Assembly (NCBI GenBank): GCA_034430835.1
Contig: DAOUDX010000220.1
Location: forward strand, 344-64,343
DNA from: Anaerolineae bacterium
GTDB lineage: Bacteria; Chloroflexota; Anaerolineae; B4-G1
Reading direction: 5' to 3'
DNA length: 64,000 nt
The translations under genes were made by a program, and so were the position numbers. A model generated the notes under the pieces. It saw nothing but the letters and a program-made list of their open reading frames with translations, was not told the origin of the DNA and did not search any database. Each line of letters begins with the position of its first letter. The stretch's first letter is position 1. Below are positions 3,001 to 63,810 of the stretch, piece after piece.

Positions 3001-5784
3001 CTCCTTGCCGGCCTCACCGACAATCTGCCGCGGGGCCAACCCCACGTAGAACTCGCCCCGGTGAACCACGACGTCGGCCCGGCCGGAGATGACCTGTCCG
3101 TCCTTGCCGTAGACCGTCGCCTCGACGGTCAGCCGCCGCCCGCCGGTCATGACCTCCGTCGGAAGGAGGACGTTCAGGTGACCCTCGGCGTCGGTGGTGC
3201 CGGAGCCGCTCAGCACGACTTCGGGATAGGGTTCCTCCCACCACCAGCACCAGCGGCAGACCCACGGATCGTCGCTGTCGGTAAAGTCGTAGCGGCCAAA
3301 CTGGGCTGGCTCGAAACGATAGGTCGTGGCCAGCACGTTCCACGCCACCGTGGCGTCGGCCACGGGGCCGCCGAAGAAATACTGCACCTCGACGTCAGCG
3401 CGGGTGGACTGGCCGGCAGCCAGCTCCGTTTTCTGCGGGGTCACGATCACCTCGAATTCCGGCGCGCGGTAGGCAGCGACGGTGAACATCGCCGTGCCAT
3501 ACCCGTCGTCGAGAAGGACGTTGATGGCGTAGCTGCCCAGCGGCGCGCCCTCGGCCAACTGGAGCTCGCCGTGGAAGGCGCCGAATTCGTCCAGCGCCAA
3601 TCTCTCGCTATAGACAGGCTCTCCGTTGGCGTCGTAGATATCGACCTGCACGCGCCCTATCCTGGGCAGGCTATAGCGCACGTCGTCTTCAGTGCGGATG
3701 ACGCCTCGGAAGTAGACGGTTTGGCCGGGCCGGTAGATGGGTCGGTCGGTGTAGACGTGGGCGCGCTGCGTGCCCGGTCTCGTACCATCCTGCTCCAGGC
3801 CGAACTCCCAGGGGGTGATGCCGCTGCTCCAGTCCCATCCCATCCCGGCCAGAACGAACGGCTCCTGCGCTACGACGTACACGTCAGTCTTGGCCCGCAC
3901 GGAGAAGTGGGCCAGGCCGCTTGAGTCGGTCGTCGTGGTTTCGAGCGATGTGCCGAACGTGTCCCACGCTTCGAGTCGAAGCCCGCCGACGGGTTGGCCG
4001 GTCGCCAGGTCGGTCGTCCAGACCCATATCTCCTCCCCGCTCTGCTTGAGCGTCAGATTGTACCGGGAGACGACCAGCAGCTTGCGGTGGCTCCAGCGAT
4101 CGTAATCGACGCCGGAAGCTCTCATGTCCAGCAGGTAGATGCCCGGCGATAGCGTTCCCCCGCCCTCGGCCAAGTCGATCAGGGCGTATCCGCGCTCGTT
4201 GAGCGGAGCCTCGACGGACACCGCCCACTGGCGGACGGGCGTGCCGGCAGGAGCGTACTCCCACCAGTTCTGCTGCGCGGCGAGGAACTCACCCGTACTG
4301 AGGCGGTAGAGGCTCAAGTCGAGCCGGTCGGTGTTCAGGTGGCCGACGACGACGCGCGCTGGCTGGCTGGCGTCGAGGGTGCCGACGGTGCTGGGGATTC
4401 GAACCTCGGCCCAGGGGTCGAGAGCGGCGGTGCTAAAGCGCACCGCCAACTCCTGGCCGGTGGTGTTGCCATAGGGGTCGGCGATGTTCGGGCCGATGCG
4501 CACCTCGTAGTCGGTGGAAGGCTGCGCGCCGAAACCAAGCACGAAGGTATTGTCGTAGGTGTTAAAGTAGGTGTAGACTTGCGTTGGCGAGAGGGGCGGT
4601 GTCATCTCCAGATTAGGCATCACCGTGGCTGCGTCGATGGGGGCGTTGAAGACGATCTCGAAGGACGTATAGGGCCAGGCGTTCCGCTCGCCGTCACGGG
4701 GATTGGTGCGCACGATGCGCGGCAAGGGCACGGTGGAAAAGCGCCAGGTGTAATCCCGTTCCATTCCTGCGCCGCCGCCGACGCTCTTCACGCCCTTGTC
4801 CACCCGCACCGTGTAGGTTGTGTTGAAGGCCAGCCAGCGGGTGGGCTTGAAGGTGAGTGTCGATCCGTCCACCGTCGCTGTGCCAGCAACATCTGCGCTG
4901 CCGGCTTGCAGGTGAAAAGCCGCCTTCGCCGAAACCGGATCGACAGGCATGTTGAACTCGACCTGGACGGCGCTATCTACACCGACCAGCTTTGCGTCTT
5001 CATACGGCGAGATCCACACGACCTGCGGCGGCTGGGTGGTGAAGCGCCATTCGTAGTCCGTATCCAGGATGCCGCCAGTGGTGTCTTCGAGGCCGGCGGT
5101 GACGCGGGCGGTGTAGGTGGTGCCGCCCGCCAGGGGCTCGTCGGGGGTGAAGACGTAGATGGACGTGTTCAGCCACTCGCCGCTGCCCTCAATGGGTGGG
5201 TCGAACGCCAGGGGTTGGGGCAGGTCCGCGTAGGCGGGGTCGCTCACGGCCATCAGCGGGACGACGGGACGATTGAAGATGACGGTGATGGTGCTGTTGG
5301 CCTCCACGTCCGCTGTATCGGGATCGGGAATGACCTGCGCTACCTCCAGGTAACCGACGGTACGGAAGCGGAAGCGGTAGGCGCCGTCCAACTGATTGCC
5401 GTCGGCGGCTTTGGCCTCTGGGCCGATGGTCACGTGATATTCGGTGTCCCGCTTCAGCGCACGATCTGGCTTAAAGCTCACCGTGCGGTCGTCGAGCCAT
5501 TCGACAGCGCCGACCACGTCCGGGCCGACCAGGAGAGCGGCCTCGACCGAACCCTTGTTCATCGGCCGATCGAAGACGATCTGGATGTCGCCGTCAGGGG
5601 AAAGCTCCTCGCCTCGCTCCGGCGTGCGCTGGACGACGATGGGGGCGACGTTGCCGACTGGAGGCGGGGTGTAGGGAGGCACTGTGGGGGAGGGCGTGGG
5701 TTCCACTGCACACTCGCAGCCTCCCATCAACATGCTGAGGAGCACGACGAGGGAAATGGCTTTATAAAGGGATGTTCGTTTCAT
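1..5784 (-). CDS. alpha-2-macroglobulin family lipoprotein (bacterial A2M / YfhM-like); C-terminus lies beyond window start
   Basis: Hand translation of the minus strand: ATG at 5784-5782 preceded by AGGAGG (5791-5796), then an uninterrupted frame to position 1 (5784 nt = 1928 codons). It is absent from the ORF track because no stop lies in the window. The N-terminus MKRTSLYKAISLVVLLSMLMGGC is a signal peptide plus lipobox. Ig-like N-terminal repeats follow. Thioester motif sits in LEHYPYECTEQIVSRF, and LRQNSDGGWGWW is typical of the thioester domain. Plus-strand ORFs 307-1971, 2290-3924 and 4339-5826 are its antisense shadows. Confidence 0.9.
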   Translation of the reverse strand, partial: MKRTSLYKAISLVVLLSMLMGGCECAVEPTPSPTVPPYTPPPVGNVAPIVVQRTPERGEELSPDGDIQIVFDRPMNKGSVEAALLVGPDVVGAVEWLDDRTVSFKPDRALKRDTEYHVTIGPEAKAADGNQLDGAYRFRFRTVGYLEVAQVIPDPDTADVEANSTITVIFNRPVVPLMAVSDPAYADLPQPLAFDPPIEGSGEWLNTSIYVFTPDEPLAGGTTYTARVTAGLEDTTGGILDTDYEWRFTTQPPQVVWISPYEDAKLVGVDSAVQVEFNMPVDPVSAKAAFHLQAGSADVAGTATVDGSTLTFKPTRWLAFNTTYTVRVDKGVKSVGGGAGMERDYTWRFSTVPLPRIVRTNPRDGERNAWPYTSFEIVFNAPIDAATVMPNLEMTPPLSPTQVYTYFNTYDNTFVLGFGAQPSTDYEVRIGPNIADPYGNTTGQELAVRFSTAALDPWAEVRIPSTVGTLDASQPARVVVGHLNTDRLDLSLYRLSTGEFLAAQQNWWEYAPAGTPVRQWAVSVEAPLNERGYALIDLAEGGGTLSPGIYLLDMRASGVDYDRWSHRKLLVVSRYNLTLKQSGEEIWVWTTDLATGQPVGGLRLEAWDTFGTSLETTTTDSSGLAHFSVRAKTDVYVVAQEPFVLAGMGWDWSSGITPWEFGLEQDGTRPGTQRAHVYTDRPIYRPGQTVYFRGVIRTEDDVRYSLPRIGRVQVDIYDANGEPVYSERLALDEFGAFHGELQLAEGAPLGSYAINVLLDDGYGTAMFTVAAYRAPEFEVIVTPQKTELAAGQSTRADVEVQYFFGGPVADATVAWNVLATTYRFEPAQFGRYDFTDSDDPWVCRWCWWWEEPYPEVVLSGSGTTDAEGHLNVLLPTEVMTGGRRLTVEATVYGKDGQVISGRADVVVHRGEFYVGLAPRQIVGEAGKEMTVDTVTVDWKGERLPRQKLGVEVYRREWINTFVENERGGGQWEWETKDTLVYTTTLTTGSNAEGVVTFTPEEGGSYRVVVGSPPMTAGGVRSSTWVWVSGNEYISWRRQNDDRITLISDKTTYIPGETAEILIPSPFTGEHWAWVTVERGGVLQQEVVRLENNSTVYELPITADHAPNIYVSAVIVKGPDDIERVATHKVGYVMLTVEPVAQELSITLTPSVGQAEPGDTVSFEVHATDAGGNPVQAAFSLDLVDKAVLSLMPRTPNAILSTFYGRRGLGVSTYSGMTISVNRLIQEQVEEEAMDVALGKGGGGDGEEGAPAPTCAALEAPGVADERQAGSELPPGVELREEFEDTAFWDATVATDEDGRATVEISLPDNLTTWVFRGVGVTADTKVGEQTTELLVTKPLLVRPVTPRFFVVSDRVQLAALVSNNTGKTQTVEVTLHAEGLTLESPAAQTVSIPNGGEAKVTWWVTAEDVEAVDVAMSAVAGEYSDAARPRLTTDPEGTLAVYRYAAPEIVGTGGQLVGEEVRTEVVALPPKYDDRQGDLSIRLDPSLAAGMRDGLTYLEHYPYECTEQIVSRFLPNVLTYRALKELGIRDQELEEKLPGLVEEGLGKLVLRQNSDGGWGWWREGESNPHLSAYVVFALVKADEVGFDVPAGTIDRGVSYLEGTLVGARKLTSYREANRQAFVLYVLAEADETRLASEYVGDLYSNRNKLSHYGRAYLALALGLIDAGDDRIDTLLSDLSNAVIPSATGAHWEEADYDYWAMNTDTRSTAIILDALARLDPDNGLNPQVVRWLMVARRDGIWETTQETAWALIALTDWMVVTGELQGEYDYNVWLNDEALASGSVTPDTVDESVQLRVEVAELLTDTGNRLTIARGPGEGRLYYTAHLKVYLPVEEIEPLNRGIIVSRRYTDPNCTQGIKCPEVNQVAVGDVVQVRLTIIAPHDLYYVVVEDPLPAGAEPIDTSLATTSLLEQQPGLYRETEDEERYWL
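1261..1272 (-). other. thioester motif C-T-E-Q of the A2M protein
   Basis: Minus-strand codons TGC ACC GAG CAG within ...HYPYECTEQIV... This is the canonical CxEQ thioester signature of alpha-2-macroglobulin/complement-type proteins. Confidence 0.85.
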
Positions 5785-38900: not shown

Positions 38901-39039
38901 TGCTTTTCCAGTGGATTGTATTCTAGCACAGCTTGGGGATGGCGTCCAGAGTTTGCCCCGTGCCATCCAGCATCGATGATTCTTGTGATAGTATACCACG
39001 CCATCATAATAAGGTCAACGGCTTTCTTCTAAATTCCAT

Positions 39040-40059
39040 TCAGAGGCGTATCAACCCTCCAGGCTGGCAGGTGCGGCAGAAGTTGGTCAGCCGGTTGCCG
39101 GCCTTGATCTCGGAGATGGCGGTGCCACAGATGGGACATGGCTGGCCGCCCTTGCCGTGCACGGCCAGAAAGTCGCGCACTTCACGGTGGATATCGGTGC
39201 CAATGCACTCGCGCAGTGTGTCGATGGCGTTGCGCAGCACCGATTGCATCGCCTCGTACAGGCGGGCGGCCTCTTCGTCTGTGAGCGATGTGCGCTTGCA
39301 GTAGGGGTGTATCCGCGCGGCGAAACAGACCTCGTCGGCGTAGGCGTTGCCGATGCCGGCCACCGCCCGGCCGCGGGTGAGGACGCCCTTGATCTCTCCC
39401 CGATGTGGCTTCAGCCGCTCCCGGAATCCCTCTAGCGTCAGATCAAAGGGCTCCGGTCCCATCTCGCTCCACCCCGGGATGGCCGCGAGGTCGGCGGTGA
39501 GGTAGATTTGCCCCATGGTTCGCTGGTCGCTGTAGCGCAACTCGTGGCCGTCGGAGAGGCACAGTACGACGTGGGTCTTGTTCAGTCGGCGCTCTGTGGG
39601 GAGAGCGTACTGGAGACGCCCGGCCAGATTGCAGTTGATCGCCAGGGTCAATTCGGACTCTAGCAGCCTGTCGGAGAGAAATTTGTCGTTCCATTTCGGC
39701 CCATTTTTGAGGTCCAGATGGCGCTTCGTGTCCTAGTTTTAGCCAAATACGGGTCCGAGAGCGGCATTTCTGCGAAAAAATCACTCCCTCCGATGGGTTG
39801 CCGGCCAAATAACAAGTCGAAGCGAGGCGTTTTTGCAGAAAAACTTTTCTCTCCGACAGCCTGCTAGGGGAAGAAGCAGTATCTTGCCGCGCCGCTGCGG
39901 GCCGGCAAAGGTCTGGCCAACGAGCGCTTCGGCAAACCCTTGGCCTGTCAGGTCGCGCACCACCAGCGGGCGCAGGACTTCGACACTGGTGATGGCCTGT
40001 CCGGCCAGCCGGAGAGCCAGCACTTCCCGGACGATTTCGAGGTCGGGGAGTTCAGGCAT
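39040..40059 (-). pseudogene. mutM: formamidopyrimidine-DNA glycosylase (Fpg/MutM family) interrupted by a 200-bp insertion
   Basis: ORF 39781-40059 encodes MPELPDLEIVREVL...RRGKILLLPL, the Fpg N-terminus with catalytic Pro2/Glu3. ORF 39040-39651 encodes ...LAINCNLAGRLQY...GIGNAYADEVCFAARIHP...CPICGTAISEIKAGNRLTNFCRTCQ, the H2TH and zinc finger. Removing 39664-39867 joins them in frame (...LLLPLESELTLAINC...) to give 271 aa. Confidence 0.9.
39660..39867. mobile_element. MITE-like non-autonomous element (200 bp) with 18-bp terminal inverted repeats and 4-bp CTAG target-site duplication
   Basis: CTAG (39660-39663) | CAGCCTGTCGGAGAGAAA (39664-39681) ... TTTCTCTCCGACAGCCTG (39846-39863) | CTAG (39864-39867). 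The TIRs match at 17 of 18 positions. The interior is AT-richer than the host gene and has no credible ORF. Confidence 0.85.
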
Positions 40060-41338
40060 CGTTCAGCCCCTGTTTGTCCATCTTCCGTTTCAGCCGCTCC
40101 AGCCGGTGATGCAATTCAGCCAACGCATCGTCACGGCGTGTCCCGGCGGGCCAGTGCTCGACCAGGGTCAACGCTGCCTGCGTCCAACCGGCTGCCAGCG
40201 GGAAGTTCTCCACGTGCCACTCAAAGTGCTTGGCCAGCTCGACGTGAGCCAGCACGTCACCGGTCGCCTCCAGGGCCAGTTGCTGCCAACAGGCGAATGC
40301 CTCGGACCGGCGATCAGCCCGCTTGAGGAGGTAGCCCAAGTCGCGCAATACCTTCGCGCGCAGGTCGGGGGAGAGGTCGCCTCGCCTCAGCGCGGCCCGG
40401 TAGGACCGCTCCGTCTCGGCCAGCCGATCCTCGGCGGCGTACCAGCGCCCCAGGCCGTAGAGTTCCGCACCGCTCAGTACGGCGTCGGTCCAGGGATCGG
40501 CGAAGGTGCGGCACAACCGGGCGGCCAGCGTGACCAGGCTGAGGATGTCCACCGCGTTGTGGTAGAGCACGCGCTGCATCTCGCGGGCATCGCCTGTGCG
40601 CAGGTAGTCACGGTAGAGGGTGGGGATGACGCCGCTGGGCACATCGGCCTGCTCGCGCAGCACACCCAGCACCGCTCGTTCGAGCGAACCCAGCGCGCAC
40701 GAGGACAGATGGTGGCGCCACAGCCGCCGCGCGGGGAACAGCAGGTCGAGGTGGGGCAGGTTGGCCGTCGGCGGCGGGATGCGGGCCAGGATGAAACGGT
40801 TTTCGAGGATCGGCACGTCAAAAGCGCGGCCATTGAACGAGGCCAGGGCTTCGAAATCTGCCAGGCGATCTGCCAGTCCCTCGATCATCGCAGGCTCGTC
40901 GCCAGGGTCGCGCAGGAAGTACTGGCTTATCCGGAAGCCGTCATCGACAAAGAACCCCAGACCGACGACGAAGGCCATCGTGCCGGCGCCGCCGGAAAGG
41001 CCGGTCGTCTCGGTGTCGAGGAAACAGACTCGCCGCGGATCGATGCCGGACAGGGCGTCGTCCTGCGCGACCTGTGCTATGCCGTTGGCGGAAAGGCCGA
41101 GGAATGAGGAGAGCGGCAAGTCGCCATGCGGGTGGTCAAGCGGGTAGGTCGCCTCGCCGACAAAGCACTGCCCATGGGAGGTCGTGTGGAAGCGGCCTGG
41201 CACCAGGTCCTCGATGGCGACGCGGCGACGCGGGGGAAGCGTTGCCAACTCGCGCACGCCTCGCACCACCCCCATCTCGCGCAGCCGCCGTCGCAGATCG
41301 TCGTGCATCGTTATGGCGTCTGTTTCCTCAATGCTCAT
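40052..41338 (-). CDS. DEDDh (DnaQ/RNase H-like fold) exonuclease with C-terminal TPR region, YprB/MrfB-like
   Basis: ORF track 40052-41401; ATG at 41338 (MSIEETD...). Exo motifs FLDTETTGL, FNGRAFDVPIL and YHNAVDILSL. The C-terminus is helical and TPR-like (...YGLGRWYAAEDRLAETERSYRAAL...). Overlaps the mutM start by 8 nt. Confidence 0.75.
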   Translation of the reverse strand: MSIEETDAITMHDDLRRRLREMGVVRGVRELATLPPRRRVAIEDLVPGRFHTTSHGQCFVGEATYPLDHPHGDLPLSSFLGLSANGIAQVAQDDALSGIDPRRVCFLDTETTGLSGGAGTMAFVVGLGFFVDDGFRISQYFLRDPGDEPAMIEGLADRLADFEALASFNGRAFDVPILENRFILARIPPPTANLPHLDLLFPARRLWRHHLSSCALGSLERAVLGVLREQADVPSGVIPTLYRDYLRTGDAREMQRVLYHNAVDILSLVTLAARLCRTFADPWTDAVLSGAELYGLGRWYAAEDRLAETERSYRAALRRGDLSPDLRAKVLRDLGYLLKRADRRSEAFACWQQLALEATGDVLAHVELAKHFEWHVENFPLAAGWTQAALTLVEHWPAGTRRDDALAELHHRLERLKRKMDKQGLNDA

Positions 41339-62845: not shown

Positions 62846-62909
62846 GGGGAGTAAGGAGTAGGGAGTAAGGATTAGAGGGAGTTCCCCTACTTCTTACTCC
62901 CTACTCCTC
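62846..62909. repeat. intergenic heptamer-tandem palindrome (GAGTAAG/GAGTAGG units) between larB and larC
   Basis: ggGGAGTAAGGAGTAGGGAGTAAGGattagagggagttCCCCTACTTCTTACTCCCTACTCCtc. Confidence 0.85.
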
Positions 62910-62927: not shown

Positions 62928-63674
62928 TCATTGGTTAATCAAGTGCGCCGTGTACCCTGCGCCGAACCCATTATCGATGTTGACCACCGCCACGCCTGGC
63001 GCGCAGCTATTGAGCATGGTCAGCAGCGCCGATAGCCCGCCGAAGCTGGCTCCGTATCCGATGCTGGTGGGCACGGCGATGACCGGGCGGCTTACCAGCC
63101 CCGAAACGACGCTGGCCAGCGCGCCCTCCATCCCCGCCGCCACGACCAGCACGTTGGCCGCCATGATCTGCTCGCGGTTGCCCAGGAGGCGGTGGATGCC
63201 TGCCACGCCGACATCGTAGAGCCGCTCCACTGGGCTGCCCAGCGTCTCAGCGGTCACGGCGGCCTCGTCAGCCACAGGGATGTCGGCGGTGCCCGCGCTG
63301 ACCACGAGCACCGTGCCCCGCCCGCTCTGGGGCGCTGGCCCGCCGACGACGATCATGCGCGCGGCGGTGTGGTAGACGGCGTCAGGGAAGGCCGCCTGCA
63401 CCGCCTCGGCCACGTCGGCGCTGGCGCGGGCGGCCATCACGCGCCCCTCCCGCTCCCGTATCCGCGCCACGATCTGCACGATCTGCTCTGTGGTTTTGCC
63501 GGGGCAAAAGACCACCTCCGGGAACCCCTTGCGCAGGCTGCGATGGCTATCCACCCGGGCGAAGCCGCCGACGTCCTCGTAGGGAAAGCCGCGCAGCCGT
63601 TCGAGAGCATCCTCCACGCTGAGGGTGCCTTGCTGGACGTTCTCTAGCAACTCGCTGAGCCATCGGGGGTTCAT
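62928..63674 (-). CDS. larB: nickel-pincer cofactor biosynthesis protein LarB (AIR-carboxylase-like)
   Basis: 248-aa ORF. ...ARVDSHRSLRKGFPEVVFCPGKTTEQI...VLVVSAGTADIPVADEA...VVAAGMEGALASVV... Confidence 0.9.
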   Translation of the reverse strand: MNPRWLSELLENVQQGTLSVEDALERLRGFPYEDVGGFARVDSHRSLRKGFPEVVFCPGKTTEQIVQIVARIREREGRVMAARASADVAEAVQAAFPDAVYHTAARMIVVGGPAPQSGRGTVLVVSAGTADIPVADEAAVTAETLGSPVERLYDVGVAGIHRLLGNREQIMAANVLVVAAGMEGALASVVSGLVSRPVIAVPTSIGYGASFGGLSALLTMLNSCAPGVAVVNIDNGFGAGYTAHLINQ

Positions 63675-63741
63675 AGATGTTCTCCAGGTGTGAGGTTTCT
63701 AGAAATGATACACGGGAACGGGAGTGTTTAATCACTTGAGC

Positions 63742-63810
63742 GGAAGTAGGGAGTAAGAAGTAAGGGGGAAAGAAATCTCTACTTACTCCCTACTCCATAC
63801 TTCTTACTCC
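63742..63810. repeat. heptamer-tandem palindrome (same GAGTAAG family) abutting the larE stop codon
   Basis: GGAAGTAGGGAGTAAGAAGTAAGGGGG-aaagaaat-CTCTACTTACTCCCTACTCCATACTTCTTACTCC. The right arm contains the larE stop (63804-63806). Confidence 0.85.

Follow-up and report, generated by a model that had tools for sequence, protein, structure and literature searches.

The window, by which we mean the whole 64-kb stretch of DNA that was analysed, contains an fpg gene that lies in two pieces on the minus strand with a 200-bp insert between them. The N-terminal fragment (39781..40059, minus strand) holds codons 1–65 of fpg, which run from 40059 down to 39865, followed by 27 codons that belong to the element and then a stop codon. 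Its translation starts with MPELPDLE...ILLLPL and continues with the element-encoded residues AGCRREKFF.... The Pfam domain Fapy_DNA_glyco is annotated on this same fragment in an identical contig, L119. The C-terminal fragment (39040..39663, minus strand) holds codons 65–271 and the stop codon, and it encodes the rest of the N-terminal domain, the H2TH domain and the zinc finger. The break is located at codons 65/66 of fpg, inside the N-terminal catalytic domain.

We found that deletion of the 200 bp together with one CTAG joins the two pieces into a single 816-nt frame of 271 codons, as an earlier note on this DNA had said. When both CTAG copies were kept, or when both were removed, the fpg frame was broken. 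The restored gene has two CTAG sites. The restored 271-residue protein was compared with Pfam and matched PF01149 (Fapy_DNA_glyco) over residues 1–117 with 90.3 bits, PF06831 (H2TH) with 62.8 bits and PF06827 (zf-FPG_IleRS) with 35.7 bits, each above its cut-off. It also has the proline at position 2 and the glutamate at position 3 that are found in 115 of 117 homologues. By all three predicted domains and by Pro2 and Glu3, the host gene is assigned to Fpg/MutM in the Fpg/Nei family of DNA glycosylases, and its substrate may be either 8-oxoguanine, as for Fpg, or oxidised pyrimidines, as for Nei.

The insert with its flanking repeats occupies 39660 to 39867. The body of the element (39664..39863, no strand assigned), which we regard as a MITE without a transposase gene, is delimited by a drop in GC content, by the corresponding empty site in a related contig (L123) and by a second copy elsewhere (L128). 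The terminal inverted repeat at the low-coordinate end, CAGCCTGTCGGAGAGAAA (39664..39681, plus strand), is identical over 18 of 18 nt to one end of three full-length elements described below, L108, L111 and L064. The repeat at the high-coordinate end, TTTCTCTCCGACAGCCTG (39846..39863, minus strand), reads CAGGCTGTCGGAGAGAAA inward. The two 18-nt repeats match at 17 positions; the sole mismatch is at repeat position 4, which is the variable N of the family end consensus CAGNCTGTCGGAG. A CTAG lies on each side, copy 1 at 39660..39663 and copy 2 at 39864..39867 (no strand assigned to either), and both are read as a target-site duplication by comparison with the single CTAG at the empty sites of L123, L124 and L125. 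These coordinates and sequences are exactly those that the earlier note gave. When up to three mismatches were allowed, the 18-mer was found at two sites only in the 64-kb window, against a mean of 0.08 in shuffled sequences. The tetranucleotide CTAG is itself scarce in the window: 40 sites are observed where base composition predicts 212, a deficit of about five-fold. A possible co-variation at repeat position 4 (C/C in the window and T/T in L130, top strand) was considered and rejected, as 48 paired elements show plain degeneracy there.

The GC content of the element is 0.505, compared with 0.65 in the flanking fpg and 0.64 in the window. The longest open reading frames inside it are 49–51 aa, and because of 1-nt indels its subfamily relatives have no reading frame in common. 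A tblastn search of the 64-kb window with IS1182 transposases gave no match, and the statement of the earlier note that the window holds no transposase stands. A promoter and terminator scan of 39000–40200 gave nothing meaningful within the element. The same scan reported one weak 5-bp hairpin with a T-run and, downstream of fpg and ahead of the next gene, one promoter-like site.

The insert and the duplication together amount to 204 bp, or 68 codons, and are in frame with fpg but contain three stop codons. The upstream fragment retains the catalytic Pro2 and Glu3, gains 27 element-encoded residues and then ends. The C-terminal fragment could start only at a TTG, at 39651, and no convincing ribosome-binding site was seen in the sequence ahead of it. 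Gene callers give the fpg fragments as separate products of 92 aa and 203 aa; the 203-aa products P0083 and P0084 are one sequence with either leucine or methionine at the TTG start. No second fpg or nei gene was found in the 64-kb window. Since the catalytic domain is split and the downstream part lacks an evident start, the domain architecture suggests that this copy of the glycosylase is most likely inactive. For annotation this means that the fpg fragments should be entered not as two genes but as a single pseudogene with a mobile element inside it.

A search with the restored Fpg sequence returned three intact 271-aa relatives, P0001, P0002 and P0003, which are 97%, 94% and 90% identical to it, and it also recovered the 203-aa C-terminal fragment of the window itself (P0083 and P0084). 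A further Fpg homologue, 79% identical, is annotated as coming from an Anaerolineae bacterium. P0001 is encoded on L123, where the gene order is that of the window: a 428-aa RNase_H_2-like protein, Fpg and YkuD. When L123 was aligned with the window, the sequences were 100% identical over 1196 nt on the N-terminal (upstream) side of fpg and 99.2% identical over 1624 nt on the C-terminal (downstream) side. The stretch shared by the two alignments is exactly the 4-nt CTAG, and L123 lacks the 200 bp. The earlier note had proposed a comparison with related strains, and L123 supplies the empty site in a near-identical one, where CTAG occurs once and the 271-aa Fpg is intact. L124 and L125, which are 97–98% identical, are also uninterrupted and have a single CTAG at the exact position, and all 117 of the 117 full-length Fpg homologues that were aligned are uninterrupted. 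The empty sites in L123, L124 and L125, together with the uninterrupted homologues, indicate that the insertion is the derived state. The insertion is fairly recent and is polymorphic in a natural population of an uncultured Chloroflexota bacterium. This bacterium probably belongs to the Anaerolineae, given the annotation of the 79% homologue and the presence of related elements in Anaerolineae MAGs.

The interrupted allele was found on at least seven contigs, counted as those with the 203-aa fragment, and the four of these that were displayed come from four different samples. The 86-kb contig L119 is identical to the window (100% over the 3020 nt compared) and contains the complete interrupted arrangement. 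The same neighbourhood is present on three further contigs, and contigs of 50–200 kb are among those that carry the interrupted allele. These observations bear on the possibility, raised by the earlier note, that the interruption is an assembly artefact, in which a repeat was misplaced in fpg or a chimeric contig was formed. The element does confuse assemblers: the short contigs L120 and L121 start inside it, as expected of a repeat, and L122 joins the flank of another copy to the C-terminal part of fpg. However, the interrupted allele has been assembled independently on at least seven contigs, and the clean CTAG duplication with exact restoration of the frame is the mark of transposition and not of a misjoin. 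We therefore consider an artefact extremely improbable, and we treat the insertion as a real allele of fpg.

When L124 and L125 served as outgroups to polarise the substitutions in this allele, six proved to be derived in the interrupted lineage. All six are in the C-terminal fragment, and four of them change the protein. Two of the derived changes, K76N and R217C, affect residues that are lysine in 116 of 117 and arginine in 114 of 117 homologues, respectively. A third, V196A, introduces an alanine that is found in 0 of 117 homologues at that position, and the fourth, H215R, is a change towards the family consensus. The earlier note had called both halves otherwise intact; this holds for the frame and the stop codons but not for the protein sequence, with its four amino-acid changes, two of them at near-invariant columns. 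The substitutions are consistent with relaxed selection after the insertion. However, the intact allele L123 has itself lost a near-invariant proline (P127L), and the ten differences that separate the alleles all fall within 436 nt, while the 1196 nt upstream are identical. For these reasons we do not lean on relaxed selection; a patch of recombination would explain the cluster just as well. G:C to T:A accounts for one of the six derived changes, and six are too few for a test of the mutation spectrum.

We also considered whether the insert might be reversible or programmed, with precise removal either from the RNA, in the manner of an intron, or from the DNA, so that fpg would remain functional or would act as a phase-variable mutator. 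Such a reading could draw on the length of 204 nt, which is a multiple of three, and on the coexistence of interrupted and empty alleles in closely related strains. The coexistence is explained by a single gain, however, as the more distant relatives are all empty, and the in-frame sequence contains the three stop codons. The anatomy, 200 bp with inverted repeats of the transposon type, is not that of an intron. Searches of Rfam gave no match, either for 39400–40100 with E-values up to 1 or for the whole window at the gathering thresholds, and the intron-like element that the earlier note had held out as an alternative is not supported. The changes K76N and R217C at near-invariant residues would fit a gene no longer under selection, and precise excision is rare among DDE transposons. 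Removal of the insert from RNA or DNA is, in our judgement, very unlikely. A structured RNA was likewise considered and dropped, as a consensus fold of five subfamily members gave, apart from the pairing of the terminal repeats, a covariation term of only -2 kcal/mol.

Metagenome contigs were scanned for the left end of the element together with nine subfamily-specific positions, and five loci were obtained. The copy in L128 has 2 mismatches in 208 nt (99% identity); its site is an unrelated one, adjacent to a photolyase-like open reading frame, and has its own CTAG on both sides. This brings the near-identical copies found to two in all, the one in fpg and the one in L128, which reflects either a low copy number or under-sampling; the count is a lower bound, as the window's own contig is missing from the results of the scan. 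L122, from a third sample, opens with the flank of the L128 site, TTCAGACC, followed by the element and then by the C-terminal part of fpg. Whether this contig is a chimera or a real recombinant, it joins both sites, and both copies therefore occur in that sample.

More distant copies of the same subfamily were also found. The copy in L129 shares its site with L126 and with L045, a locus in an Anaerolineae MAG, while L130 and L110, a locus from a genome scan, each hold a copy at a further site. All of these are 70–77% identical over the full 200–201 bp and are flanked by CTAG. The earlier note had suggested a search for other copies, and such copies thus exist both at 99% identity at another CTAG site and at 70–77% in other Anaerolineae assemblies. 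The 200–201-bp architecture recurs at at least five insertion sites with 70–99% identity, so the short form itself has transposed repeatedly.

To find elements with the same ends we scanned one genome per species for CAGSCTGTCGGAGAGAAA and obtained at least 120 matches in at least 118 loci. Among the matches listed, 77 of 120 are directly preceded by CTAG, and about 72 of those 77 belong to Chloroflexota, with taxa taken from record titles. The Chloroflexota represented are Anaerolineae, Chloroflexia, Caldilineaceae, Thermoflexales and Ktedonobacteraceae. The remaining CTAG-preceded matches listed come from two cyanobacterial MAGs, one Blastocatellia MAG and one Phycisphaerae MAG. Where no CTAG precedes an end match, the taxa are mostly unrelated, and such matches seem to be due to chance.

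Pairing of the ends gave a MITE-sized class of 113–201 bp, with subfamilies of 138–141, 182 and 200–201 bp, and at least three full-length elements, L064, L108 and L111 (1438, 1567 and 1570 bp, respectively). The full-length elements are bounded by CAGCCTGTCGGAGAG at start and end and have CTAG on both sides. An insertion sequence with ends matching those of the fpg element, which the earlier note had also thought worth seeking, is therefore represented by these three. Two of them, L108 and L111, are from Anaerolineales MAGs, and each has an intact transposase gene, with products of 458 and 454 aa, respectively. Against the NCBIfam equivalog model NF033551 (transpos_IS1182) the two transposases scored 322.7 and 322.2 bits, above the cut-off of 270, and they also matched Pfam DUF772, at the N-terminus, DDE_Tnp_1_6 and DDE_Tnp_1. 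In contrast, both failed the IS5 model NF033581, with 47.7 and 47.2 bits against a cut-off of 140, and the L108 transposase reached only 18.8 bits with the IS5 model NF033578, for which the cut-off is 275. Since the IS1182 cut-off is passed and the IS5 cut-offs are not, the partners belong to the IS1182 family, which is separate from IS5 although akin to it. The earlier note had placed the element with the IS5 group, and this was right as to the neighbourhood but not as to the family.

With the full-length elements in hand, it can be asked whether the insert is a one-off remnant, left when a full-length insertion sequence entered fpg and afterwards lost its interior, and not a member of a spreading family of short elements. 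The low apparent copy number, with two near-identical copies found, would suit such a remnant. However, the 200–201-bp architecture is present from end to end at at least five sites in several assemblies, with identities of 70–99%. In a sensitive blastn comparison of the MITE with all 118 loci, full-length elements were similar to it only over 22–32 nt at the ends, so that its interior lacks similarity to their transposase genes. A one-off remnant is thus highly doubtful, and we regard the insert as a member of a family of short elements.

We then considered the target site. The sites in fpg and L128 share CCCTAGAG, which made a target preference beyond CTAG a candidate; this was rejected, as 109 distinct flanking decamers, among the matches listed, show none that is strong and only a mild enrichment of C at positions -1 to -3. 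Where pairs of flanks were informative they were CTAG/CTAG, single-base variants of it, or CGCG/CGCG. The sole non-CTAG case is L097, with CGCG on both sides, which is also palindromic. Because CTAG is a palindrome, a 4-bp duplication of CTAG looks the same as a 2-bp duplication of TA by an element with the ends G...C. We favour the 4-bp duplication, since published members of the IS1182 family make 4 bp. One of these is ISPse1, which was caught with a trap plasmid; its inverted repeats measure 16 bp, and its insertion duplicates 4 bp (PMC3281130).

Our data suggest, with a probability of roughly 0.93, that the insert in fpg is a MITE whose ends are the recognition sequences of a lineage of IS1182-family DDE transposases that is widespread in Chloroflexota. 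In the mechanism that we propose, a transposase acting in trans, either encoded by a full-length element at another place in the genome or there only for a time, would bind the CAGNCTGTCGGAGAG ends. The element would then have inserted at a CTAG in codons 65–66 of fpg, and staggered cleavage followed by gap repair would have duplicated the CTAG. What has been seen directly is the build of the element, its empty site, its second copy, the full-length partners with their family, and the repeated independent assembly of the interrupted allele; mobilisation in trans, the loss of Fpg activity and a possible change in the mutation rate are inferred.

As an instance of a mobile element disrupting a gene, the case is clean but ordinary. 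A wider meaning is possible, although we hold it only tentatively and think it rather unlikely as a whole: the interrupted fpg may be not just a transient harmful insertion but a tolerated and persisting loss of 8-oxoguanine or Fapy repair in a setting where oxidative damage is low, and, separately, the elements with CAGNCTGTCGGAGAG ends and CTAG targets may make up a large, apparently undescribed IS1182 lineage of Chloroflexota. The presence of the interrupted allele on at least seven contigs and in several samples, beside the intact allele, would fit a tolerated loss. If this were true, a MITE would have given rise to a mutator or repair-loss polymorphism that segregates naturally in an uncultured Anaerolineae population. 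The MITE bursts of such an IS1182 lineage, with at least 30 copies in one MAG, would fragment Chloroflexota assemblies.

There are also practical consequences. The signature of CTAG followed by CAGNCTGTCGGAGAG marks an element or MITE lineage of the IS1182 type that is common in Chloroflexota MAGs, often at contig ends, and it should help to mask repeats, to track strains and to account for breaks in assemblies. In addition, the presence and absence of the element in near-identical strains offers a possible natural experiment on the loss of Fpg and its effect on the mutation spectrum.

Among known systems, natural mutator alleles, in which repair genes are disrupted by mobile elements, resemble the present case in that a glycosylase gene of the GO system is split and the allele is polymorphic in a natural population. 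The fpg case offers six lineage-specific substitutions for comparison, of which one is G:C to T:A.

The targets of IS5 are YTAR sites, CTAG or CTAA for example, where its insertion creates a duplication of 4 bp. The IS5 group shares with the fpg element's partners a transposase of the DDE type, but the partner transposases are only weakly similar to the IS5 models. They are about 455 aa long with an N-terminal DUF772, in full-length elements of 1.4–1.6 kb, and in this they differ from IS5-group elements.

The IS1182 family, including ISPse1, IS1272 and IS1182, has the transposase type of the full-length partners. Some of its members are reported to target palindromes (Siguier et al., as cited in PMC5678879), and CTAG is likewise palindromic. 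IS1272 replaces the stem-loop that is its target and leaves no duplication (PMC5678879), whereas the fpg element has a simple CTAG duplication and a clean empty site. [quoted passage not shown] MITEs with IS1182-type ends and the disruption of genes by MITEs are both already documented, and no concept is changed by the present case; in the literature that was searched we found no description of MITEs in Chloroflexota.

The closest published analogue, going by its description, is MITEPye1 of Paracoccus yeei, which has 18-bp inverted repeats resembling those of the IS1182-family element ISPye18, 4-bp direct repeats and 1–3 copies per chromosome (PMC11578231). The hosts differ, with MITEPye1 in Alphaproteobacteria and the fpg element in Chloroflexota. 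The copies of MITEPye1 described there are intergenic, whereas the fpg element is inside a gene, and the passage of PMC11578231 that describes them reports no fixed CTAG target. As far as that description goes, the two are otherwise alike: each is short, lacks a gene for a transposase and has 4-bp flanking repeats and 18-bp terminal inverted repeats of the IS1182 type, both are low in copy number, and mobilisation in trans is presumed for both.

To compare the interrupted fpg allele with its uninterrupted counterpart, we used L123, a near-identical strain with an intact gene and an empty site. We found that all 10 differences between the two alleles lie within 436 nt of the C-terminal part of the gene (39040-39663), and the 1196 nt upstream contain none. 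Six of the 10 are derived in the interrupted lineage, among them K76N and R217C at columns that are near-invariant over 117 aligned homologues, and the other four, P127L among them, are derived in the intact allele. This pattern could reflect relaxed selection on the gene or could be a recombination patch.

The start codon of fpg overlaps the end of an upstream 449-aa ORF by 8 nt (40052-40059). This ORF is the counterpart of a 428-aa gene with an RNase_H_2 domain that is called on related contigs, and the two genes probably share a transcript. In L124, a 97-98% identical uninterrupted relative, an Ogt-type methyltransferase gene is found a few genes upstream of fpg, thus the locus is a small DNA-repair neighbourhood.

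Restoring fpg by removing the insert and one CTAG leaves two CTAG sites within the gene. CTAG is strongly under-represented across the whole window, where 40 sites were observed while 212 are expected from base composition and 89 by a Markov estimate. There are therefore few places in this genome where an element specific for CTAG can land.

The short contig L122 (JGI 3300031275, Ga0307437_1065974) also carries the element. Its positions 1-12 read TTCAGACC followed by CTAG, the sequence that borders the second MITE copy at its unrelated site in the metagenome locus L128; the MITE comes next and is followed by the C-terminal part of fpg. Either the assembler built this contig as a chimera across the repeat, or the two MITE copies have truly recombined. 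The scan of metagenome contigs missed the source contig of the window, Ga0315544_1000088, as well as the other long contigs on which fpg is interrupted, all of which contain the pattern, so that MITE copy counts from metagenome contigs are lower bounds.

At least about 30 loci, as counted from the locus listing, in the single MAG CAYVLO01 (Anaerolineaceae SRP241341_co1_181; within L004-L105) carry a MITE subfamily of 182 bp that shares its ends and its CTAG flanks with the family of the fpg MITE. Many of these copies sit at contig ends, and it appears that a MITE burst has broken up the assembly.

Repeats of another kind are present near the end of the window, where hairpin-forming AGTAGGGAGTAAG-like units occupy 62850-62908 and 63745-63810. 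They flank both sides of a probable coding stretch on the minus strand, read by eye at about 62940-63675, and have a higher AT content than their surroundings. Two possible identities for these repeats are intergenic repeat elements and bidirectional terminators.

The scan of one genome per species for the 18-nt MITE end also returned unusual members of the IS1182-end family. In a Pseudanabaena MAG, a cyanobacterium, a full-length element (L064, 5571-7008) shares these ends and is bordered by CTAG. Its transposase is broken into one ORF of 272 aa and one of 189 aa, the result of either an assembly error or a frameshift that made the gene a pseudogene. In L099 (about 3398-3440), the end that lies upstream of an IS1182-type transposase gene is built of the inverted repeat, a single G and an inverted copy of the repeat, an arrangement that forms a perfect terminal hairpin. 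A mini element of ~56 bp in L031 (about 920-980) is composed of a repeat, 25 nt and a repeat, with CTAG on both sides. Finally, a 139-bp member in L097 (4099-4237) is bordered on both sides by CGCG in place of CTAG. This is the sole clean non-CTAG duplication among the matches listed, and like CTAG it is a palindrome.
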